Assembly: GCA_023229765.1 (NCBI GenBank)
Contig: JALNYO010000001.1
Location: 66,569-130,568 of the forward strand
From: Syntrophales bacterium
Lineage (GTDB): Bacteria > Desulfobacterota > Syntrophia > Syntrophales > UBA5619
DNA length: 64,000 nt
Direction: 5' to 3'
The position numbers and the translations under genes are program-made. The notes beneath the pieces were generated by a model. It worked only from the letters and a program-made list of their open reading frames with translations. It had not been told where the DNA came from and did not search any database. Below are positions 13,487-47,079 of this stretch, piece by piece. Every line of letters starts with the position of its first letter. Positions within the stretch are counted from its first letter, which is position 1.

Positions 13487-14461
13487 TCATCTGTTCGCCT
13501 TTTTGAAATTAGCCCTTTTCAGCAGATCCAGCCAGATAATATATACTATCATTGACGCAGTGCAGACGGCCGCAGGAATGGCGGCCTCCTTCCCAAACAG
13601 TGTCAGGGCAAGGCCGCCCGCCATGCCCTGATTTTTCAGGGACCCGAGCAAGACGAGGCTCGTGCGCGTTGGAGCGGAAATTTTTAAAAACCCGCCAATC
13701 CTTTCTATCAGAAAGCCGAGGATAAAGTTTGTTGAGAAGGGGATGACTGCTACGGCCAGTAAAACGGGCTGGAGGCTGAGGAAAACGGCGCTGTTTAATC
13801 CCACCAGCGTGTACATGACCAGGAAGAAACTCCAGTTCGTTATTCCGCCTGCCCAGGGGGATATTTTTTTGCTCCAGCCCCTCCAGATCAGAAGGCGCGA
13901 GATGATGAGCGGCAGGATTATCAGTTCAAGTACGACCACCAGCAGTTTGAGCGGCGCAAAAGCCTCCGGACTGAGCAGCGTAAAGGCAATCAGCGGCATG
14001 ACAACCAGCCCCCCAAGGTAGGCGCCGGCTGTCCCTATTAAAGATAAATCGCTGTTTCCCTTGAGAAAACCAGAAAAAGGTATAACCGCCACGGCGGGGG
14101 GGACTGCTGCGAGCAGGACAGTGCCGGCCCAGAGTTTTTCATCCTTCAGCAAAATGGCGCCGAGCCCGATAATAATGCCGCTCAAGAGGATGTAGTTCAT
14201 GAGGATGCCGATAAAGGCGGGTAAAAGGAGCGTGCGGGGCCGGCGGAAGAGGTCATTGCCGATTTCCATGGTCGATAGGATCATTGTCAGGGCGAGCGCC
14301 GGCAGGATCAGTTGACTCGTTGTCTCGGAGGCACCGGGCAAAAACAGCCCCAGAACCAAAGCTGCAATAAAGATGAAATTTCTATTTCGTAACAACCCGT
14401 TCAGGGTGATCATGGGCGCGCCTTTATCGACGATGTCTTTGGCAACTGTGGTTATCTGCAA
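13487..14461 (-). CDS. Polytopic membrane transporter, bile acid:Na+ symporter (BASS/SBF)-like
   Basis: About 9-10 hydrophobic helices, and LLGSLKNQGMAGGLAL resembles the BASS KN..A motif. The start may be the internal ATG at 14413 (MITLNGLL). Confidence 0.45.
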   Translation of the reverse strand: MQITTVAKDIVDKGAPMITLNGLLRNRNFIFIAALVLGLFLPGASETTSQLILPALALTMILSTMEIGNDLFRRPRTLLLPAFIGILMNYILLSGIIIGLGAILLKDEKLWAGTVLLAAVPPAVAVIPFSGFLKGNSDLSLIGTAGAYLGGLVVMPLIAFTLLSPEAFAPLKLLVVVLELIILPLIISRLLIWRGWSKKISPWAGGITNWSFFLVMYTLVGLNSAVFLSLQPVLLAVAVIPFSTNFILGFLIERIGGFLKISAPTRTSLVLLGSLKNQGMAGGLALTLFGKEAAIPAAVCTASMIVYIIWLDLLKRANFKKANR

Positions 14462-17654: not shown

Positions 17655-20600
17655 ATGGCGGAAATATACAAAGCAGGAATAGATGCCGGTTCTACAACGG
17701 TAAAGCTGGTCGTCTGCGCTCAAAACGGGAGCATCTTATTCTCCCGTTATCGCCGCCACCATTCGTTGACGCTGGGGACGATAGCGGAAATGCTGATTGA
17801 GGCAAGGCAGGAGCTGGGAAATATCGTCCTCGATGTTGTTCTTACCGGTTCCGCCGGGATGGGGGTTGCCGAGTCTTTTCAGCTTCCCTTTATACAGGAA
17901 GTTGTCGCCTCGACAAAAATTGTCCAGCGCCGCTGGCCGGATGTCCGAACGCTGATAGAGATAGGGGGCGAGGATTCGAAAATCGCCTTTTTTGACAATC
18001 GTTTTCAGCCGGACATCCGCATGAACGGAAACTGCGCGGGCGGAACGGGCGCCTTTATCGAGCAGATGGCTGTGCTGCTGAATGAGCCTCTGAACAAACT
18101 GGACGAACTGGCCCAAAAAAGCGGCGCACTCTATCCGATAGCTTCCCGCTGCGGGGTTTTTGCCAAGACCGATGTTCAGGCCCTCTTGAGCAATCGCGTT
18201 TCCCGGGAGGATATTGCCGCATCGGTGTTTCATGCGATGGCGATTCAGGTGATCTCCTCCCTTTCCCGGGGGCATGACATTGAAAGCAAAGTGCTTTTTG
18301 CCGGAGGACCGCTGACCTTCTTTCCTTCTCTGCGGGCGGCCTTTATCCGCCTGCTTCAGCTTGATCCCGAAAAGGATATCGCCGCGGGTGAACATCCGGA
18401 ACTGATGGCGGCAGTGGGGGCGGCTCTTTGCCATGCGGGAGAGGGTCTTGTGATCGAAATTGAAAAATGCCTTCAGCTTATCCAAAACGGGACAATGAAG
18501 GGGTGCAAGGAGGATCAGAAAAGGCTCCCGCCCCTTTTTTCCGATCAGCGGGAGGTGGAAATCTGGGAGGAGGAGCATCATCAAAAACGCGTTTGCCGGG
18601 TAGATGTTTCGGAGCTGAAAGGGGTTGCCTGTTTTCTGGGGATCGATTCCGGATCAACGACAACGAAGCTTGTCCTGATTGACGATAAAAGGCGGGTCGC
18701 CCTCACCTGGTATCAGTTGAATGGGGGCGATGCCATCGGCGCCGCCCGCCGGGGGCTCTTATTTTTCCGGGATGCCTGTCGCGAGGCGGGCGTTGCCCCT
18801 TTTGTCGCCAGGACCGCCGTTACCGGGTACGGAGAGGATTTGATCAGGGCGGCGTTTGCCATCGATGACGGCGTGGTGGAGACGGTTGCCCACTATCGCG
18901 CGGCCCGCCATTTTCTGCCCGAGGTCTCATTCATCCTTGACATCGGCGGTCAGGACATGAAGGCGATTTATGTGCGCGACGGGGGAATAGCCGATATTCA
19001 GATAAACGAGGCGTGCTCATCGGGCTGCGGTTCTTTCATAGAAACGCTCGCCAATTCCCTGAAGATCAGCGTCTCCGATTTTGCCGGAGTTGCCTGCAGG
19101 GCAGAGGCGCCCTTTGATCTGGGGACGCGCTGCACGGTTTTTATGAACTCGCGGGTAAAACAGGCCCTGCGCGAAGGAGCCACCGTTGGGGATATTTCCG
19201 CGGGACTCGCAAGTTCGGTGATCGGCAATACCCTCTACAAGGTTCTCAAGCTGCACGATCCCTCGGCGCTGGGCGATAAAATAGTCGTACAGGGAGGGAC
19301 ATTCCGCAATCCGGCGGTGCTGCGAGCGTTTGAGCTGGAGATCGGCCGGCAGGTGATCCGCCCGGATATCTCCGAGGCGATGGGGGCCTATGGCGCCGCC
19401 TTGACGGCCTTGCAGGACCGTCTTGCGGAACCGACGCGGGCTTCCACATTTCCGGGGCTGGACGCCGAGACACAGGAAAACATCATCGGGAAAAAGGAGT
19501 TACGGTGCAGCGGCTGCGAAAATAACTGCAAGGTTGCCCGGATAACTTTCAGCGGCGGGCGGAACTATTTTACCGGCAATCGCTGCGAACGCCACTTCAG
19601 CAACAAGGGCGCCGGGGGAAGGCAGGGAGAGAATCTCTTTATCGACCGCCTGAAGCTGATTTTCGACCAGCCCCTCCTGCCGGAACAGAAGCCGCTTCTG
19701 ACCTTTGGCATTCCCCGCGCCTTGAACATGTTTGAAAACTTCCCCTTCTGGGCTAATTTCCTGACCGCCTGCGGCTTTAAGGTTGTCCTTTCCGCCCCGT
19801 CCGATACGAAGCTGTTTGAACGGGGGATACGAACGGTCATGTCCGACAATATCTGTTTTCCGGGGAAGCTTGCCAATGGGCATATCCTCGATCTGATAGA
19901 AAAAAAGGTTGAGCGAATTTTCTACCCGATCGTTGTCTTCGAGGCGAAGGAGGATGCGGACACGCTGAACAGTTTTAATTGTCCCGTTGTTACCGGATAT
20001 CCGGATGTTATCCGCAGCGCGATCGACCCGGAGGGGCGATATGGACTCCCGCTCGACTGTCCTGTGGTCAGTTTCAGGTCGCGGGAGCTTCTCGAAAAGC
20101 AGCTTTACTCGTTTTTCAAGGGTTACGGGATCGCCAGAAAAACAATCTCCGCGGCGGTAACGAAGGGCAGAGAGGCGCAGCAACGGGTGCGGGAGGAAAT
20201 GTCCCGGCGGGCGGTCGCCTTGATCGAGAAGGCCCGCGCGGAAAAGCGTTTTGCCGTGGTCGTTGCCGGCCGACCCTACCATGCCGATCCGCTGGTAAAC
20301 CACGGCCTTCCCGAAATGCTCGCGGGGATGGGGGTGGATGTTATCCCCGAGAGTGCGGTTCCAGTTACTAAAGACGGTCATATACTTAAGGATATTAGCG
20401 TCTTGAGCCAGTGGGAATACACCAATCGTATCCTTGCCGTCTCCCGGTTTGTCGCCGCCAATCCCCATCTCGAACTGCTTCAGATCACCTCGTTCGGCTG
20501 CGGCCTTGATGCTATTTCCACCGACGAGGCGAGGGATATCATTACTGAAAAGGGGAAGGTTTATACGCTTATCAAAATGGACGAGATCTCTAATCTCGGG

Positions 20601-21944
20601 GCGGTAAGGATTCGTCTGCGCTCCATGCTCGATATAGCCAAAGAGAGGTCGCAAAGCTCAACGCCGCATGCATTGCCGCCCCTTTCCGCCGAGCGGGTTG
20701 AAGGAAAGGAAGCGGAAAGGACGATTATTGTCCCCTGGTTTTCTCCCTTTTATTCGCCGGCAATTCCGGCTATCTTTGCCTCGCTGGGCTATAAGGTGGA
20801 GCTTCTCGCCCCCCAGGAGCGTTCCTCGGTGGATGTAGGGCTCCGGTATGTCAACAACGACGTCTGCTACCCGGCGCTGATCGTTATCGGGGATATTGTC
20901 AAGGCCCTGCAATCAGGCAAATGGGACCCCACGAAAACTACCATATTGCTTACCCAGACCTTTGGGCAGTGCCGAGCGTCAAGCTATGTGCCGCTTGCCC
21001 GGAAGGCCCTTATCGCGGCAGGTTTTGGCGAGGTGCCGGTTATTTCCCTTTCCGAGAGCGATGCGCTTATTCATGCGGGCATCCCGATCGATCAGAAAAG
21101 ACTGGTAAAACGACTGGCGCTGGGGCTGATGTTTGCCGATCCCCTGTCGAAAATGGCCCTGGCAACAGCGCCGCGCGAGCTCCATCCCGGCTCGGCCATG
21201 GTCCTTCAAAAGAAGTATCTTGACGAGTTGGGCATCCTTGTAAGCCGGGAAGACTTCGGACTTCTCCTCGCCATGCTGAAGGCGGCCATCCGCGATTTCA
21301 ATATGATTCCGGTTCATGATGATCCGATTCCCGTAATTGGGCTGCTCGGAGAGATATTCGTCAAACACAATGAATTTTCCAATAACAACATCGTGGACTG
21401 GTTCAGAACAAAGGGGGTCGAGGTGGTCGTCCCCCCGCTGCTGAGTTTTTTCGAGCAGCGTTTCGTAAACGAGGAGTTCGATCAGCAGGCTTTTATGAAA
21501 AGCTCTCTTCGGGACCGAGTCGTTCTGGGTCTGCTGGGTAGGTATATAAGCGTTTACCTTCACCGCGTGGAGCGGGCCATGAAAGGATTCCGTTATTACC
21601 GGAGAACTTATGACCTCAAGGAACTGGCGGCTGATGCGGGCAAGGTGACAAGCCTTGCCAACCAGGCCGGCGAGGGGTGGCTGCTGCCGGCTGAGATCAT
21701 CGCGATGGTGCGGCAGGGGATTGATCATATCGTCTGCCTGCAGCCGTTCGGCTGCCTGGCCAATCACATCATCGGCAAGGGAGTGGAAAAAAGGCTGAAG
21801 AAGCTGTATCCGCAGCTCAATCTGCTGTATATCGACATGGACCCGGGGACAACCGAGGTGAATATTCTGAATCGCCTCCACCTGATGGTGATGTCCGTTC
21901 AGGCGGAAATGAAGTGGCCGCGGCTCAAGGCCGAGGGGGAATAA
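17655..21944 (+). CDS. Giant fusion protein: two BcrAD/BadFG-type (2-hydroxyacyl-CoA dehydratase activator-like) ATPase domains plus two DUF2229/dehydratase-like domains
   Basis: GIDAGSTTVKLVV (aa ~9) and GIDSGSTTTKLVLI (aa ~330) are acetate/sugar-kinase fold phosphate-1 motifs. They are followed by the Cys motif CSGCENNCKVARITFSGGRNYFTGNRCERH and about 800 aa of CoA-enzyme-activase-associated region. Confidence 0.8.
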   Translation: MAEIYKAGIDAGSTTVKLVVCAQNGSILFSRYRRHHSLTLGTIAEMLIEARQELGNIVLDVVLTGSAGMGVAESFQLPFIQEVVASTKIVQRRWPDVRTLIEIGGEDSKIAFFDNRFQPDIRMNGNCAGGTGAFIEQMAVLLNEPLNKLDELAQKSGALYPIASRCGVFAKTDVQALLSNRVSREDIAASVFHAMAIQVISSLSRGHDIESKVLFAGGPLTFFPSLRAAFIRLLQLDPEKDIAAGEHPELMAAVGAALCHAGEGLVIEIEKCLQLIQNGTMKGCKEDQKRLPPLFSDQREVEIWEEEHHQKRVCRVDVSELKGVACFLGIDSGSTTTKLVLIDDKRRVALTWYQLNGGDAIGAARRGLLFFRDACREAGVAPFVARTAVTGYGEDLIRAAFAIDDGVVETVAHYRAARHFLPEVSFILDIGGQDMKAIYVRDGGIADIQINEACSSGCGSFIETLANSLKISVSDFAGVACRAEAPFDLGTRCTVFMNSRVKQALREGATVGDISAGLASSVIGNTLYKVLKLHDPSALGDKIVVQGGTFRNPAVLRAFELEIGRQVIRPDISEAMGAYGAALTALQDRLAEPTRASTFPGLDAETQENIIGKKELRCSGCENNCKVARITFSGGRNYFTGNRCERHFSNKGAGGRQGENLFIDRLKLIFDQPLLPEQKPLLTFGIPRALNMFENFPFWANFLTACGFKVVLSAPSDTKLFERGIRTVMSDNICFPGKLANGHILDLIEKKVERIFYPIVVFEAKEDADTLNSFNCPVVTGYPDVIRSAIDPEGRYGLPLDCPVVSFRSRELLEKQLYSFFKGYGIARKTISAAVTKGREAQQRVREEMSRRAVALIEKARAEKRFAVVVAGRPYHADPLVNHGLPEMLAGMGVDVIPESAVPVTKDGHILKDISVLSQWEYTNRILAVSRFVAANPHLELLQITSFGCGLDAISTDEARDIITEKGKVYTLIKMDEISNLGAVRIRLRSMLDIAKERSQSSTPHALPPLSAERVEGKEAERTIIVPWFSPFYSPAIPAIFASLGYKVELLAPQERSSVDVGLRYVNNDVCYPALIVIGDIVKALQSGKWDPTKTTILLTQTFGQCRASSYVPLARKALIAAGFGEVPVISLSESDALIHAGIPIDQKRLVKRLALGLMFADPLSKMALATAPRELHPGSAMVLQKKYLDELGILVSREDFGLLLAMLKAAIRDFNMIPVHDDPIPVIGLLGEIFVKHNEFSNNNIVDWFRTKGVEVVVPPLLSFFEQRFVNEEFDQQAFMKSSLRDRVVLGLLGRYISVYLHRVERAMKGFRYYRRTYDLKELAADAGKVTSLANQAGEGWLLPAEIIAMVRQGIDHIVCLQPFGCLANHIIGKGVEKRLKKLYPQLNLLYIDMDPGTTEVNILNRLHLMVMSVQAEMKWPRLKAEGE

Positions 21945-29043: not shown

Positions 29044-29093
29044 GCATCCCCCTTGCCTCTCCCGCTAAGGAAAGGCAAGGGATGCGATTTTTA
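29044..29093 (+). terminator. Hairpin terminator between the convergent dehalogenase and GcvH-like genes
   Basis: GCATCCC(cc)TTGCC-16 nt-GGCAAGGGATGC (12 bp with a 2 nt bulge) followed by GATTTTTA. Confidence 0.5.
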
Positions 29094-29909
29094 TGAGGCT
29101 TTATGCCGGGAAACAACTGAATCCAGAATCTGGACAAGCTGTTTTGAATTGATCGAACGGAGCAGGTCTATCAGGTTGGTTACCCGGGCGCCTCCATCCT
29201 GCATGGTGGGGCCGACTTGGGACGAGCTCATTTTCATAAGCGAGCATACCCTGTTGGAGATATCGTTTTCCTCCCGGTGTTTCCAGAAGAGCGCTTTTCT
29301 CCCGAAAAAGAGTTTTTTAAAATCGTTTTCGAGATTGTCCGGTTTGATCGTAACGAGCCAGCCATTTCCCTGCGGATCGGAGGTGAGCAGCCCCGGGTTG
29401 TTTTTAAGACGGTAATTGGTCGCGATAATGATCCCCGAAACGGGAGAAATCACCGGCAATACGTAATCTCCCTGAATAATGTGGGCAAAACATTCTCCAG
29501 CGCCGGTGAAAGAGCCCTCCGCGGGCAGGATTACCAACTGCACGTTGGAGATAAGCATCGTGATAAGTGAATCCAAACCGATCCGCACCTTTTCCTGGGT
29601 TTCCACCTTTACCCAGCAGTGATCAGGATGAAAGAGGAAGGAGCCGTTGTCGAGCTGGTATGACGGATCGTCGAAAAACGACCCCTCCTCTTCTATTTCC
29701 GATGATTCGGAAAAATTGCTGTCCCCCCCGTTTTTCATTGCGCGGTCGAAAGGGCAGGTCTCGCAGTGGTCGTTTCTGTCGCACAGCTTGTAGGATACGA
29801 GCCCTGTTTTCATCCAGACGCATTTGTTTTCTTCTGCTGGAATTAGGGGATAACTTTTGCACTTTGAGCTCATTGAATCCATCTCTGCACCTTTTATTCC
29901 TTCAAGCAT
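29091..29909 (-). CDS. GcvH-like (lipoyl-domain fold) protein with an N-terminal Cys4 motif and no lipoyl lysine
   Basis: C-x12-C-x5-C-x2-C (CVWMKTGLVSYKLCDRNDHCETCPFD), then an H-protein-like core HCWVKVE..VRIGLDSL...LP..G...SPVSGIIIATNYRLKNNPGLLTSDPQGNGWLVTIKP. The position aligned to the GcvH lipoyl-Lys is Asp. The C-terminal region carries VGPTMQDGG. Confidence 0.7.
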   Translation of the reverse strand: MLEGIKGAEMDSMSSKCKSYPLIPAEENKCVWMKTGLVSYKLCDRNDHCETCPFDRAMKNGGDSNFSESSEIEEEGSFFDDPSYQLDNGSFLFHPDHCWVKVETQEKVRIGLDSLITMLISNVQLVILPAEGSFTGAGECFAHIIQGDYVLPVISPVSGIIIATNYRLKNNPGLLTSDPQGNGWLVTIKPDNLENDFKKLFFGRKALFWKHREENDISNRVCSLMKMSSSQVGPTMQDGGARVTNLIDLLRSINSKQLVQILDSVVSRHKAS

Positions 29910-29915
29910 CTCTAT

Positions 29916-30611
29916 TTAAGAAACCAGGAAGAAATCTTTTACCAGCTTATCCCAGTTCTCCGGATCCATGTTTCTGGCAATGCCGTCCACCGGCACACCA
30001 CCATCCTGAGAAAGTGCTCCCAGGTTGTAATTTCCCCGGGCCAGAAGGCTGTCTCTGACGCCATCCATCCATTTTATGGCCAGATCTCCGGTCAGAAGAT
30101 TTTTCAGGTTGGATGAAACCCTCGGGGATTGAACCTTGATCAGCCAGGACTGCCCATAAGGATCGCTGTTTACCCCGGCGGGAGATTTCAGCAGGGCTTC
30201 GTTTACGGCAACTATTTTACCGTCAACGGGGGAGAGCATATCAATCAGTTTTGAGCCTACCTGCACGCTCCACCCCTTTTCTCCCTGGGCGACTTCGGCG
30301 CCAACCTGCGGAAGATTGATTGAATCTATTTTGCCGAGCATTTTCTGTGCGAAGTCATCCATTCCCACCTTCATGATGTTTCCTTCCTCGGGCGTCGCCC
30401 AGCTATGCCCCTGGTGGAAAAACATCCCCTGAGCCGGCATGCTGAACCAGTTGCCGATTGCCGAAACGGCGTTGGCAACTCCTTGGTAAACCGCCTCAAC
30501 GGGTCCTTTCAAAAAATTCCAGAACACAACAAAGGTAGCCAGCACCGCGATTATCACCAGATATTCAATGCCCTTGGTGGCGAATATGTCAACGTAGGTG
30601 AACCCTTCCAT
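29916..30611 (-). CDS. Membrane-anchored GcvH-like protein
   Basis: N-terminal TM helix IEYLVIIAVLATFVVFWNFL. The core is HQGHSWATPEEGNIMKVGMDDFAQKMLGKIDSINLPQVGAEV...SPVDGKIVAVNEALLKSPAGVNSDPYGQSWLIKV. The Lys is displaced by one residue from the lipoyl position (GSKL versus SVKA). The C-terminal region carries LGALSQDGG. Confidence 0.7.
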   Translation of the reverse strand: MEGFTYVDIFATKGIEYLVIIAVLATFVVFWNFLKGPVEAVYQGVANAVSAIGNWFSMPAQGMFFHQGHSWATPEEGNIMKVGMDDFAQKMLGKIDSINLPQVGAEVAQGEKGWSVQVGSKLIDMLSPVDGKIVAVNEALLKSPAGVNSDPYGQSWLIKVQSPRVSSNLKNLLTGDLAIKWMDGVRDSLLARGNYNLGALSQDGGVPVDGIARNMDPENWDKLVKDFFLVS

Positions 30612-32998: not shown

Positions 32999-33232
32999 TT
33001 ATTTTTTCTCTTTCTCTTTCTCAATTGCAGCGCCGCCGTCGGCCATTGTTACGCCGAGCTGCCCTTTGAAAGCCACGGCATTAACCTCGCCGTTCCTTTC
33101 CCTGGTCCTCGTTAAGATGTCCATCCCCCTGGATATCGCAACATATCCTACAGACGTCATGGCGCCTATAATCCAAAACAGGGGCATGATTAAACCTAAC
33201 GCTAAAAGAATGATGATGACTGCTGTACTCAT
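32999..33232 (-). CDS. Small (77 aa) membrane protein carrying the LGVTMADGG tail motif
   Basis: One or two N-terminal TM helices (AVIIILLALGLIMPLFWIIGAMTSVGYVAI) and a tail ...KGQLGVTMADGGAAIEKEKEKK. The 9-aa motif is identical to the NrfD-like tail but is encoded with 5 synonymous codon differences. An RBS AGGAGGA lies upstream of the ATG. Confidence 0.65.
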   Translation of the reverse strand: MSTAVIIILLALGLIMPLFWIIGAMTSVGYVAISRGMDILTRTRERNGEVNAVAFKGQLGVTMADGGAAIEKEKEKK

Positions 33233-33364: not shown

Positions 33365-33381
33365 AAACAACATTCATGCCA
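33365..33381 (-). promoter_or_regulatory. Weak sigma54-like -24/-12 candidate for the redox operon
   Basis: The minus strand reads TGGCATGAATGTTGTTT against the consensus TGGCACG-N4-TTGCW, so the -12 GC is GT. It lies about 135 nt upstream of the small-protein ATG. No EBP gene is in the window. Confidence 0.2.
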
Positions 33382-43054: not shown

Positions 43055-43304
43055 GGACGCTCCTTTCAGATTATCTTTGATGCGACTGATATGCGGATGC
43101 GTTTATTAGCGTAACCGTAATTGCAAAGTCAAGATAAATCTGGAATAAAATAGTCGCTTGACTTTGAGGGGCAGTATGGTATCTTCAGCCGGCAGTTAAC
43201 TGATGATATTCTGGCTGATTATCGGGAATATGGAGCTTTATAAAGAAATGAATTTAATAGTCAACTGACCGGGGCTGGGGTCGGTTTTTTTTTGAAAGGA
43301 TGTT

Positions 43305-45830
43305 ATGCTTGGTCTGGTTCTGAAAAAAATTTTCGGCAGCAAGAATGAAAGGGAGATAAAGCGGCTTTCGCTTATCCTGGATGAGGTAAACCGCCTCGAA
43401 CCGTCGATCAAGGCCTTGAGCGATGAGGAGCTGAAAGCCAAGACTCCCTATTTTAAACAAAAGCTGGAAAGCGGGACGGAGCTCGAAGACATTATGGTCG
43501 AGGCTTTTGCCGTCGCGCGCGAGGCTTCCTGGCGGACGCTCGGCATGCGGCCCTTTGATGTCCAGATTATCGGGGGCCTGACGCTGCACGAGGGGAAGAT
43601 TGCCGAGATGAAAACCGGCGAGGGAAAGACGCTGGCGGCGACTCTGCCCATTTACCTGAACGCCTTGACGGGCAAGGGGGTTCACCTGGTTACGGTCAAC
43701 GACTACCTTGCCCAGCGGGATGCGGCCTGGATGGGGCCGATCTACAACTTTCTGGGAATGAACGTGGGCGTAATCGTCCACGGAATGGACGACGCTGAGC
43801 GGCGCGCTGCTTATCATGCCGATATCACGTACGGAACAAACAATGAGTTCGGCTTCGACTATCTGCGCGACAACATGAAGTTCAACATCGAGGAATTTGT
43901 GCAGAGGGATTTTAACTACGCCATTGTTGACGAGGTGGACAGCATCCTGATCGATGAGGCGAGAACGCCGCTGATCATCTCCGGGCCCTCGGAGGAATCT
44001 ACCGATAAATATGCGCGGGTAAACGGGATAATCCCCAGCCTGCGCAAGGAAAAGGATTATGTCGTTGACGAAAAGAGCCGCACGGTCGTGCTCACGGAAG
44101 AGGGGGTGGCCAGCGTCGAGAAGAGTCTCAAGGTGGAGAATCTCTACGAACCCGGGAATATAGACCTGCTGCACCATGTCAACCAGGCGCTCCGCGCCCA
44201 CACCCTTTTCAAACGGGATGTTGATTATCTGGTAAAGGACGGAAAGGTTGTCATAGTCGATGAGTTCACCGGCCGGGTAATGCCGGGCAGGAGATACAGC
44301 GATGGACTCCATCAAGCGCTCGAGGCCAAGGAACATGTAACTATCGAGCAGGAAAACCAGACCATGGCGTCTATTACCTTTCAGAATTATTTCCGCATGT
44401 ATGAAAAATTGGCGGGCATGACCGGAACGGCGGACACCGAGGCGGAAGAGTTCAGCAAGATTTATAATCTGGAGGTTCTTGTCATCCCGACCAATATGCC
44501 GATGATCCGCGAGGATTTCTCCGATGTTATATACAAGACGGAAAAAGAGAAGTTTAATGCTGTTATAGAAGAAATAAAGAATCTGCATGAAGCAAAAAGG
44601 CCCGTTCTGGTCGGGACAATTTCCATTGAAAAATCGGAATTGCTCAGCAAGTACCTCACCCGTACCGGCATCAAGCACCATGTTCTCAACGCGAAGAACC
44701 ATGAGCGGGAGGCGGAAATCGTCGCTCAGGCCGGGCAGCCGGGGCAGGTAACCATCTCGACCAATATGGCGGGCAGAGGCACCGACATCAAGCTGGGCGA
44801 GGGAGTCGCCGACTTGGGCGGCCTTCACATCCTGGGGACGGAAAGACACGAAAGCCGCCGGATAGACAATCAGCTCCGGGGACGTTCCGGACGGCAGGGC
44901 GACATGGGTTCTTCGCGTTTCTATTTGTCTCTGGAGGATGATCTGCTCCGGATTTTCGGCGCCGAGAGGATCTCCGGCGTTATGGAGAGGATAGGGATGG
45001 AAGAGGGGGAGCCTATCGAACACAAGCTCATTTCCAGGGCGATCGAAAACGCCCAGAAACGTGTCGAGGGACAGAATTTTGATATCCGTAAGCATTTGCT
45101 GGAATATGATGACGTGATGAACCGACAGCGCCAGGTGATCTACGAGCAGCGCAAAAGGGTGCTCAAGGGCGGGACGCTCCGGGAAGACATCAAGCAGATG
45201 ATCCGGGAGATCGCCGATGAGATGGCCCCGGTTTACATCGATGAAAAGCGTCATCCGGAAGAGTGGAATCTGGGAGGATTCGACGACGAAATCTTCCACC
45301 GTTTCGGGCTGAAGCTTAATTTGGCGGAAACCGGCAGAGAAGCGGGGCCGGAGGCGCTGCAGGGGATGCTCGTTACGGCTCTCGAAGAACATCTGAAAAA
45401 AAAGGAGAACGATTTCGGTGAGTCCCTGATGGATTATCTGATGCGGGTGATCATGCTGCAGGCGATTGATTCCCAGTGGAAGGATCATCTGCTGGCGATG
45501 GACCACCTGAAAGAGGGGATAGGGCTCAGGGGCTACGGCCAGAAGGATCCGGTGCGGGAGTATCAGAAAGAGGGATACGACATGTTCATGGAGATGATCG
45601 GCCGGATCAAGTATGAAAGTGTCGAGAAGCTCTGCCTGGTGCAGGTCCGTCGCGAGGAAGAGGTAGAGCGGATTGAGGAAAAACAGCGCCGGACCTACAG
45701 GCTTTCCCGGGGCGAGGATGAAGCGCAGGCCGCCACTCCCATCAAAAGAAGCAAGCCGAAAATCGGGCGCAATGACCCGTGTCCATGTGGAAGCGGCAAA
45801 AAATACAAGAATTGCTGTGGCAGGGGCTGA
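43305..45830 (+). CDS. secA: Preprotein translocase ATPase SecA
   Basis: [21 protein letters not shown]..., [28 protein letters not shown] and a C-terminal zinc motif [14 protein letters not shown]. Confidence 0.97.
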
Positions 45831-45882
45831 AGAGGCTCTGGCGCCGGCAGCGTTACGGCAGATGGTTGGTGACGAGGTTGTT

Positions 45883-47079
45883 ATGAAAAAGGTGCAAGAA
45901 TGCAAGGTTCCGGGATTTCTTGCCAATGGAATCCCGGTTGGCATCAAGGAAAACGGCGAGCGGGATTTGTCGCTGATTTTTTCGCGGCAACCGGCAACGA
46001 CGTCCGCGGTTTTTACGACGAACTGTTTCAAGGCTGCCCCGGTGCAAGTCGATATGGAGAGAATCCGCTCCGGGAAGATTCAGGCGATCGTCATCAACAG
46101 CGGTGTCGCCAATGCCGCAACGGGCAAAGAGGGCATAGACGATGCGCTGGCCGTTTCCCGGGCTCTCGCCGCAGAACTTGCCATTGATGAAGAAAAGATT
46201 TTTGTTGCCTCCACCGGCGTCATTGGACGCCGCTTGCCCGTAGGGAAGATCGTGGGCGGAATTAAGGACTTGGTGGCCGGTCTTAATGAAAATGGCATTG
46301 CGGACGCGGAGGCGGGAATCATGACGACAGACCGGTTTCCCAAAATTGCCTTTCGCCGCGGCACGATAGGAGGGTGTGAGATTTCCCTCTGCGGGATAGC
46401 CAAAGGGGCCGGGATGATCCAGCCCAATATGGCGACGATGCTGGCCTTTGTCATGACCGATGCGGCAATAGAAAAGGACGCACTTGATGCCCTGTTTCAC
46501 CGCGCAGCAGCAGGCACTTTTAACGCTGTGACGGTTGACGGCTGTATGAGCACCAATGACACCGCCGTCATTATGGCCAATGGAGTGGCGGGCAACAGGC
46601 CCTTCAAAAAGGGGTTGCACTCGGCCGCGCTCTTCGGGGAGATGCTTGCGGATTTGATGCTGGAGCTTGCCAAAGGTTTGGTACGGGATGGCGAGGGCGC
46701 CACAAAGATGATTGAGATAAAAGTAACCGAGGCGCTTACGCAGAAAGATGCCGAGAAGGTCGCCTACGCCATTGCCAATTCCAATCTGGTGAAGACGGCA
46801 TTTTTTGGAGAGGACCCAAACTGGGGGCGGATTATCTCCGCGGCGGGAGCGGTTGGCGTAGATTTGCCCGTTGAGCAGGTGAAGTTGTTCCTGGAGGATG
46901 TCCCACTTTTTGCAGAAGGCACAGGAGTGTCAGGAAGGGAAGATGAAATAGCGGAAATCATGAAAAGGCCGGAAATAAAAATCGGTATCTCGCTGGGGAT
47001 GGGCAAAAAATCGTGGCGGGTTTGCACATCCGATCTTTCCTTCGACTACGTAAAAATCAACGCGCATTACCATACTTAA
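45883..47079 (+). CDS. argJ: Bifunctional ornithine acetyltransferase / N-acetylglutamate synthase ArgJ
   Basis: PGFLANGIPVGIK...KGAGMIQPNMATMLAFVMTDA (autocleavage ATML site). ATG 45883. The track ORF start at 45673 overlaps secA. Confidence 0.92.
   Translation: MKKVQECKVPGFLANGIPVGIKENGERDLSLIFSRQPATTSAVFTTNCFKAAPVQVDMERIRSGKIQAIVINSGVANAATGKEGIDDALAVSRALAAELAIDEEKIFVASTGVIGRRLPVGKIVGGIKDLVAGLNENGIADAEAGIMTTDRFPKIAFRRGTIGGCEISLCGIAKGAGMIQPNMATMLAFVMTDAAIEKDALDALFHRAAAGTFNAVTVDGCMSTNDTAVIMANGVAGNRPFKKGLHSAALFGEMLADLMLELAKGLVRDGEGATKMIEIKVTEALTQKDAEKVAYAIANSNLVKTAFFGEDPNWGRIISAAGAVGVDLPVEQVKLFLEDVPLFAEGTGVSGREDEIAEIMKRPEIKIGISLGMGKKSWRVCTSDLSFDYVKINAHYHT

Follow-up and report, generated by a model that had tools for sequence, protein, structure and literature searches.

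Two GcvH-fold proteins without the canonical lipoyl lysine end a conserved Syntrophales operon for a proposed Hmc-like, quinone-linked membrane complex

In lipoyl domains, a shift of the target lysine by a single residue abolishes lipoylation. LbpA, a GcvH-like protein recruited from glycine cleavage into energy metabolism, strictly conserves its lipoylated lysine, and its genes lie in or beside hdr-like clusters associated with specific lipoate-protein ligase genes (PMC6067878). The purified menaquinone reductase Qrc of Desulfovibrio has been described as a four-subunit enzyme, with no GcvH-like partner (PMC6303296, PMC13059093). We analysed a 64-kb window, i.e., the whole 64,000-nucleotide stretch of contig JALNYO010000001.1 of a Syntrophales bacterium, which encodes two adjacent GcvH-fold proteins, here called A and B. 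Our results show that A and B end a conserved Syntrophales operon for a probable Hmc-like, quinone-linked membrane complex, that the canonical lysine is missing from both of them, and that they belong to a conserved module which also accompanies QrcABCD clusters in Acidobacteriota, while A-type proteins stand beside a lactate transporter as well.

A and B have the fold of GcvH and keep its core motifs HxW, VGID, SPVxG and DPYGxGW. They differ from GcvH in the absence of the lysine at the hairpin tip, in their scores below the equivalog cut-offs, in their place in a respiratory operon instead of beside gcvT and gcvP, and in the added modules, namely a transmembrane helix in B, a four-cysteine (Cys4) motif in A, and a C-terminal extension of 55-70 aa with a DGG motif in both. 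With LbpA they share the apparent recruitment of a GcvH-like protein into energy metabolism, whereas the canonical lysine and the hdr-like or ligase neighbours of LbpA are absent. The two proteins and their main features are located as follows:

29882-29091, minus strand: A, 263 aa, with the Cys4 module and a GcvH-fold domain
29754-29822, minus strand: C-x12-C-x5-C-x2-C module of A
29613-29630, minus strand: HPDHCW of A
29466-29474, minus strand: QGD of A, with Asp139 at the lipoyl-lysine position
29190-29216, minus strand: VGPTMQDGG in the C-terminal extension of A
30611-29916, minus strand: B, 231 aa, with a GcvH-fold domain at residues 65-176
30510-30569, minus strand: HmcD-like transmembrane helix of B
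30249-30257, minus strand: hairpin G119-S120-K121 of B
29997-30023, minus strand: LGALSQDGG in the C-terminal extension of B

Both proteins exceed the gathering score of 22.2 for Pfam GCV_H (PF01597; A 65.3 bits, B 90.7 bits) and stay below the cut-off of 115.85 bits for the NCBIfam GcvH equivalog TIGR00527 (A 59.2, B 81.3). They are paralogues with 26% identity (tblastn, E ~1e-17), and their profiles align in hhalign with a probability of 99.6% and E 3.5e-24 over 154 columns, which include the GcvH core and most of the C-terminal extension. The AlphaFold model of B (mean pLDDT 73, core ~90) shows a transmembrane helix followed by a GcvH core, which Foldseek superposed on the GcvH structures 1onl, 3ab9 and 3klr with a TM-score of ~0.9 and a root-mean-square deviation of ~1.6 Å. 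A sequence-only reading of this DNA had taken both open reading frames (ORFs) for GcvH-fold paralogues and had placed an N-terminal transmembrane helix in the 231-aa protein; the profile scores, the alignments and the structural match of B bear out the first claim, and the helix is seen in both the AlphaFold model and the hydropathy plot. The length of 272 aa that it gave to A, counted from the first ATG at 29909, needs correction. The second ATG at 29882 is most likely the start, since an AAAGGTG ribosome-binding site is found there, and not at the first ATG, and since the resulting length agrees with that of the homologues. The source databases label A and B as 'glycine cleavage system protein H' or 'hypothetical protein'; we rejected a plain GcvH annotation, which fails on the lysine, the equivalog cut-off and the gene context. 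For each of the two families 120 listed homologues were evaluated, and their named sources are mostly Syntrophales, Syntrophobacterales and other deltaproteobacterial metagenome-assembled genomes (MAGs).

In phmmer alignments with solved GcvH chains, the lipoyl-lysine of the ESVKAASD/VESTKSVSD motif falls on Asp139 in A and on Ser120 in B, where Lys121 follows at position +1. The AlphaFold model of B agrees with this assignment, with the hairpin turn formed by G119-S120 and K121 opening the next strand. Aspartate occupies the lysine position in 115 of the 120 listed A homologues (the Cys4 type), and the lysine at +1 is kept by 116 of the 120 listed B homologues. The alignments and the conservation thus agree with the earlier assignment of Asp to the Cys4 protein and of Ser with a following Lys to the 231-aa protein, whose lysine does not fall at the lipoylation turn. 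The further claim that the two proteins probably cannot be lipoylated holds insofar as the canonical lysine is missing from both, but it reaches beyond the alignments, given the lysine at +1 in nearly all B homologues. The hairpin tip varies among the related subfamilies described below: Asp in A of the Hmc type, Ser followed by Lys (+1) in B, a canonical Lys in 6 of 7 aligned A proteins linked to a transporter, Asp or Gly in the Qrc-type relative A2, and Gly-Gly in the Qrc-type relative B2. No hairpin lysine is conserved across the subfamilies, which argues for a common function independent of a lipoyl-lysine and is in line with the earlier proposal that the fold was recruited for another job. 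What A, B and A2 do have in common is YHxxH(x)W, with which the domain begins; in the pea H-protein structure this region lines the cavity that takes up the loaded lipoyl arm. VG(I/L)D, P..G, DPxGxGW, LLxG..A..W and the DGG extension are further features common to the subfamilies.

The scanned ORFs of the window, which comprised most of those of at least 200 aa and the genes called in the 20 kb surrounding the operon, contained no gcvT, gcvP, lipoate ligase or lipoyl synthase domain, and the earlier statement that gcvT, gcvP and lipoate ligase genes are not nearby is thus upheld. Likewise, gcvT/gcvP, lipoylation genes (ligase, LipA, LipB) and hdr-like genes were not found in the conserved neighbourhoods of the related loci. 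According to the ORF list and the gene calls, A and B are the final two genes of a five-gene minus-strand operon with the order T-HmcB-HmcC-B-A, the first three genes of which are:

33232-32999, minus strand: T, first gene of the operon, 77 aa, a single N-terminal transmembrane helix followed by a basic stretch and the C-terminal tail ...KGQLGVTMADGGAAIEKEKEKK, also given as QLGVTMADGGAAIEKEKEKK
33032-33058, minus strand: tail motif of T
32860-31973, minus strand: HmcB/HybA-like periplasmic ferredoxin subunit of the 4x[4Fe-4S] type with four ferredoxin-type Cys motifs
31976-30633, minus strand: HmcC/NrfD-like integral membrane subunit with ~10 transmembrane helices
30672-30698, minus strand: LGVTMADGG in the tail of the HmcC-like subunit

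The genes are tightly packed: HmcB and HmcC share 4 nucleotides (nt), B follows HmcC after 21 nt, and A follows B after 33 nt. HmcB and HmcC are the best NCBIfam matches of the two genes, all scores being below the equivalog cut-offs: the HmcB-like protein reached 316 bits with HmcB (cut-off 420) and 226 bits with HybA, in addition to Pfam Fer4_11, and the HmcC-like protein reached 359 bits with HmcC (cut-off 550) and 212 bits with HybB, in addition to Pfam NrfD. The HmcB-like protein has a weak TAT_signal match of 15.8 bits, below the gathering score, and a C-terminal transmembrane anchor at residues 263-281. Residues 10-36 of B match the HmcD model NF045712 weakly (25.1 bits, cut-off 34, E 1.3e-5), and the same N-terminus has a precomputed match to PF28260 DVU_0533 that is itself graded 'weak'. 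The operon resembles the HmcABCDEF and NhcABCD systems in its HmcB- and HmcC-like genes, its HmcD (DVU_0533)-like helix and its B-C-D order. It differs from them in its scores, in the lack of HmcA/NhcA, HmcE and HmcF, none of which was found in the operon or its flanks, in the fusion of the D-like helix to a GcvH-fold domain, and in the extra genes T and A. With QrcABCD the likeness is that QrcD and the HmcC-like protein of the window are both NrfD proteins with ten transmembrane helices (37 bits between the window protein and QrcD) and that the accessory trio flanks the Acidobacteriota clusters; the difference is that QrcA and QrcB are absent from the window.

The order T-HmcB-HmcC-B-A is repeated in ~20 Syntrophales loci, where T is kept upstream of the HmcB-like gene and A is 52-90% identical to the protein of the window. 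The window locus itself is identical or nearly so to a contig of a Syntrophales MAG (GCA_054635285.1). Variants of the arrangement were also observed. A Syntrophus MAG (L030:6490-8343) carries a T-B-A trio with no HmcB or HmcC nearby, flanked by DUF3783 and DUF6125 genes and a gene for an HI0933-like FAD protein. On another contig, which is apparently frameshifted in several genes, a second, divergent tail gene and a B-like GcvH gene lie a few kb from the main cluster (L017:9227-10349, minus strand).

Four of the five operon proteins, i.e., all except the HmcB-like one, carry the peptide LGxTM(A/Q)DGG. The motif reads QLGVTMADGG in T and GLGVTMADGG in the HmcC-like protein, where it lies 10 and 12 residues before the stop, respectively; A (QVGPTMQDGG) and B (NLGALSQDGG, the SQDGG form) carry it internally. 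TMADGG-type peptides are found in these four proteins in the window and in all related loci. Within an alignment of 82 sequences of A, G224 and Q228-D229-G230-G231 are invariant and P225-T226-M227 are conserved in at least 90%. In B, D203-G204-G205 are invariant. A profile of the tails aligns with residues 218-235 of A in hhalign (E 2.6e-5, probability 75%). Searched against a set of 5.8 billion proteins, the same profile matched 154 clusters (at 90%), and the 120 listed matches are all short proteins of 33-82 aa, among which neither a Pfam family nor another class of tail-bearing protein was found. Against 1.84 billion representatives it gave 51 matches, nearly all of them small proteins, the profile being narrow and of the Syntrophales type only. 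Neither T nor the C-terminal extensions of A and B have a Pfam, NCBIfam or PDB match beyond noise. Lysine and arginine residues follow the transmembrane helix of T and enrich the N-terminus of the HmcC-like protein, and A has no signal peptide. In NrfD proteins with ten transmembrane helices, the two termini lie on the N-side (PMC8076601). The basic stretch of T, the orientation of the NrfD termini and the missing signal peptide of A together place all four copies of the motif in the cytoplasm.

An exact DNA-pattern scan for LGxTMADGG in metagenome contigs yielded at least 120 loci; the counts of T genes and Qrc loci given here refer to the matches listed. Among them are 110 small ORFs that carry the motif close to their C-terminus, and 107 of these have a single transmembrane helix ~34 residues upstream of it; their tail consensus is (D/G)HxFxxPxLGxTMADGGE. 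Where at least 900 bp of sequence followed the T gene (67 genes), the next gene was GcvH-like in 56 cases and HmcB-like in 5, together 61. The dominant order is T, GcvH-like B2, QrcA, QrcB, QrcC, QrcD and A2, a GcvH-like protein with a transmembrane helix and Cys4 motif. In the locus L072:2110-12129 QrcA exceeds the NCBIfam cut-off, QrcD scores 563.6 against a cut-off of 570, and QrcB and QrcC are best matches; further bracketed QrcABCD clusters lie in L148, L127, L133, L100, L034, L104, L140 and L093. Exact-sequence look-ups placed the Qrc clusters in the Acidobacteriota, namely in Candidatus Sulfotelmatobacter and Bryobacteraceae. A2 combines its transmembrane helix with an extension of the type ..(T/A)(M/L)ADGGVPV.., and B2 carries CDGGxPVRGVA and two other Cys-rich repeats (CPFLxE...C), which have no Pfam, NCBIfam or PDB match beyond noise. 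These repeats, two copies of CPFLKEGRARYC...C.......C at the N-terminus of B2 (L072:2494-3339 and 64 similar ORFs), differ from C-x12-C-x5-C-x2-C. As the trio of T and two GcvH-like proteins occurs in both Hmc-like and Qrc-like loci, it accompanies two different NrfD lineages, and its distribution spans two phyla.

A-type proteins alone accompany a tailed transporter. In 8 loci (L021, L024-L029 and L031) from Smithella, Syntrophaceae and other deltaproteobacterial MAGs, an A homologue with 36-45% identity is encoded without HmcBC, B or T nearby, and directly upstream of it lies a gene for a major facilitator superfamily (MFS) transporter that exceeds the cut-off of NF049980, the SfMCT L-lactate transporter. 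These SfMCT-type transporters end in PQLG(L/A/F)TMADGGEK..KK, and such a tail is absent from the solved SfMCT. The tail is an extra C-terminal segment of ~45 aa, e.g., in L024:6556-7893.

The Cys4 module was found with the spacing C-x12-C-x5-C-x2-C in 119 of the 120 listed A homologues, so its conservation in orthologues is well supported, and the A2 proteins of the Qrc type keep the same spacing. We found no Pfam, NCBIfam or PDB match beyond noise for the Cys4 region and no CCG or ferredoxin motifs in A or B. The four cysteines of A may form a metal site; the AlphaFold model of A, built on the 82-sequence alignment, is poor (pLDDT 51).

Many loci of the Hmc, transporter and Qrc kinds also encode a sigma-54 response regulator, an archaemetzincin (Peptidase_M54, NF033823) and a Cache/HAMP histidine kinase. 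This trio is usually convergent with the operon (Qrc examples L072 and L100), and the M54 gene, with an intact HExxHxxGxxH, sits between the regulator and the kinase in Syntrophales, Smithella-type and Acidobacteriota loci alike (L024:8725-9288, L007:1026-1610, L072:9809-10360). For one A-family homologue, P0098 (412 aa), the annotation gives a HisKA domain at the C-terminus, probably because the gene call fused it to the adjacent histidine kinase, which again places A next to a kinase. In 42 of the 67 loci a GG-N10-GC element precedes T at a fixed distance, with 37 hits in one 70-nt bin compared to 2 on the opposite strand. The element, e.g., TGGCAC-N5-GTGCA, lies ~250 nt upstream of the tail motif in loci such as L133, L151 and L087. 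The adjacency of the regulator to many loci and the sigma-54-like element upstream of T suggest that a sigma-54 two-component system controls the module, and the TMADGG tail is a candidate substrate of the archaemetzincin. In the window we noted one weak site:

33366-33381, minus strand: weak sigma-54-like TGGCAT-N5-TTGT, 149 nt upstream of the T start codon

We list this site only as a candidate, since its -12 GC is not intact. With a strict sigma-54 pattern, the window and the Syntrophales loci gave only weak or inconsistent sites, and clear ones were found only in loci of the Qrc type; a scan of the operon for sigma-70 promoters and terminators gave no more hits than shuffled sequence. The segment 33233-33860 between the Mla operon and the tail gene is an unusually AT-rich non-coding region of ~600 nt, in which the weak sigma-54-like site is the only promoter signal, sigma-70 hits being no more numerous than after shuffling.

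We interpret the operon as encoding an Hmc/Nhc/Qrc-type complex with novel GcvH-fold accessory subunits. With our confidence evenly balanced for and against, we hypothesize that A and B serve an Hmc/Nhc-like, quinone-interacting membrane complex as accessory subunits on its cytoplasmic side and are neither glycine-cleavage H proteins nor lipoate carriers. Such a complex would comprise the periplasmic HmcB-like iron-sulfur subunit, the HmcC/NrfD-like membrane subunit, B with its HmcD-like anchor, soluble A with its putative Cys4 metal site, and T with its one helix. A and B would assemble with T and the NrfD subunit on the cytoplasmic face through the DGG peptides, so that protein-peptide recognition would replace the lipoyl swinging arm. 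In the most speculative and least secure step, they might cap or gate proton-coupled membrane proteins in a regulatory manner, and the Cys4 site might sense redox state or metal; the proton path of NrfD and an H+/lactate symporter would both suit such a cap. A regulatory or gating role is the most economical one because an H+-coupled lactate transporter would use the same partner.

Several points weigh against this proposal. Its support comes from gene neighbourhoods and shared motifs, and the window operon encodes neither a periplasmic catalytic subunit nor a cytochrome subunit. The regulatory role is only what NrfD complexes and an MFS transporter would most economically have in common. In the monomer models the segments with the motif are disordered (residues 196-209 of B; residues 220-234 of A, where the model is poor); such low confidence is typical of peptides that take up their fold on binding a partner. 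The genes for the kinase, the regulator, M54 and the MFS transporter are all absent from the window, and its sigma-54-like site is weak. Finally, the conserved lysine at +1 in B and the canonical one in the transporter-linked A clade leave a modified lysine conceivable in these lineages.

That last point is the starting ground of an alternative that we regard as very unlikely, in which B through Lys121 and the transporter-linked A proteins through their canonical lysine would still be acylated with lipoate or another cofactor and serve as swinging-arm carriers, with A as a degenerate partner, after the models of LbpA in sHdr sulfur oxidation and of the biotin carrier of membrane decarboxylase pumps. 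The well-preserved GcvH core of B, with its TM-score of ~0.9, would suit this as well as the two conserved lysines. It is difficult to reconcile with the sensitivity of lipoylation to a one-residue shift of the lysine, which is general knowledge, with the Qrc-type relatives, where GG or D/G stands at the hairpin tip and no lysine at or beside it, and with the conserved neighbourhoods, in which ligase, LipA, LipB and hdr-like genes were not found. LbpA, in addition, always keeps its strict lysine and sits in or beside hdr-like clusters (PMC6067878). The cysteines suggest another role, to which we give the least credence of all: the Cys4 motif would bind an iron-sulfur cluster, and A and B would form a cytoplasmic module for electron input or output that replaces HmcE/HmcF (HdrDE-like) and links a cytoplasmic redox partner to the quinone site. 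HmcE and HmcF are indeed absent, the Cys-rich proteins at the operon end are probably cytoplasmic, the four cysteines are invariant, and B2 of the Qrc type has its two further Cys-rich repeats. However, NrfD subunits carry no cofactors (PMC8076601) and no haem-b subunit is encoded, so that a transmembrane electron path is not evident and an electron-input role from the cytoplasm is unlikely; A-type proteins also occur beside a lactate transporter of the MFS, a protein without a redox role, and CCG or ferredoxin motifs are lacking.

The remaining two explanations both start from the tail. In the one that we consider unlikely, A and B would act as adaptors, chaperones or protectors while membrane proteins are assembled or quality-controlled; M54 would handle the tail as a processing site or degron, which the GcvH-fold proteins would bind or mask under two-component control. 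The co-encoding of M54 with its intact active-site motif in Syntrophales, Smithella-type and Acidobacteriota loci speaks for it, as does the nature of the tail, which is C-terminal, flexible, followed by a Lys/Glu-rich end and present on three unrelated kinds of membrane protein. It sits less well with the window, which has no M54 gene, and with the motif being internal in A and B, both of which are conserved operon members at subunit-like positions; moreover, we know of no substrate of any archaemetzincin. The other, which we put forward tentatively and with more doubt than confidence, is that the module consists of 'tail readers': lipoyl-less GcvH-fold proteins would recognise the near-invariant LGxTMADGG tag on proton-coupled membrane proteins and, by means of a Cys4 metal site, couple their activity or stability to the redox or metal state of the cell. 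The tagged proteins would be the NrfD subunits, directly in Hmc-like complexes and via T in Qrc-like ones, and the MCT-type lactate transporter, and the module would be controlled by a dedicated sigma-54 two-component system and archaemetzincin from Syntrophales to Acidobacteriota. EIIA-Glc acting on LacY/MalK and PII/GlnK acting on AmtB offer an analogy only, in that a small soluble protein binds a cytoplasmic segment of a membrane protein; they have no sequence or fold relationship to A and B.

The remaining part of the window is occupied by housekeeping genes (Mla, EF-G, rpsB-tsf, dxr, ispG, proS and others). Two of its ORFs matched no Pfam family at E <= 1e-5, one of 925 aa adjoining the EF-G gene (43254-46031, minus strand) and one of 324 aa between an AMP-binding (acyl-CoA ligase-like) gene and a Znu/ABC-3 metal transporter operon (13487-14461, minus strand). 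The ORF at 17655-21944 on the plus strand encodes a 1429-aa fusion of BcrAD_BadFG and DUF2229 domains, resembling the activator ATPases of benzoyl-CoA reductase and 2-hydroxyacyl-CoA dehydratase, which fits a syntrophic degrader of aromatic or fatty acids.

The open-access literature on NrfD, Qrc, Syntrophus and the sulfate-reducing acidobacterium yielded no GcvH-like partners of Qrc, Hmc or NrfD proteins and no mention of the motif, and the accessory module is apparently undescribed so far. NrfD complexes of the Qrc, Hmc and Nhc types have a central place in the energy conservation of sulfate reducers and syntrophs. A conserved cytoplasmic accessory module would alter the four-subunit picture of Qrc and would offer a handle on the control of electron flow and proton uptake in syntrophic degraders of fatty and aromatic acids and in peatland sulfate-reducing Acidobacteriota. 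That a lactate transporter bears this tag as well hints at a docking code of general use, and if GcvH-fold proteins do read this tail, they would represent a new kind of module. The family also provides a clear case of a lipoyl-carrier fold that has outlived its lipoylation site.

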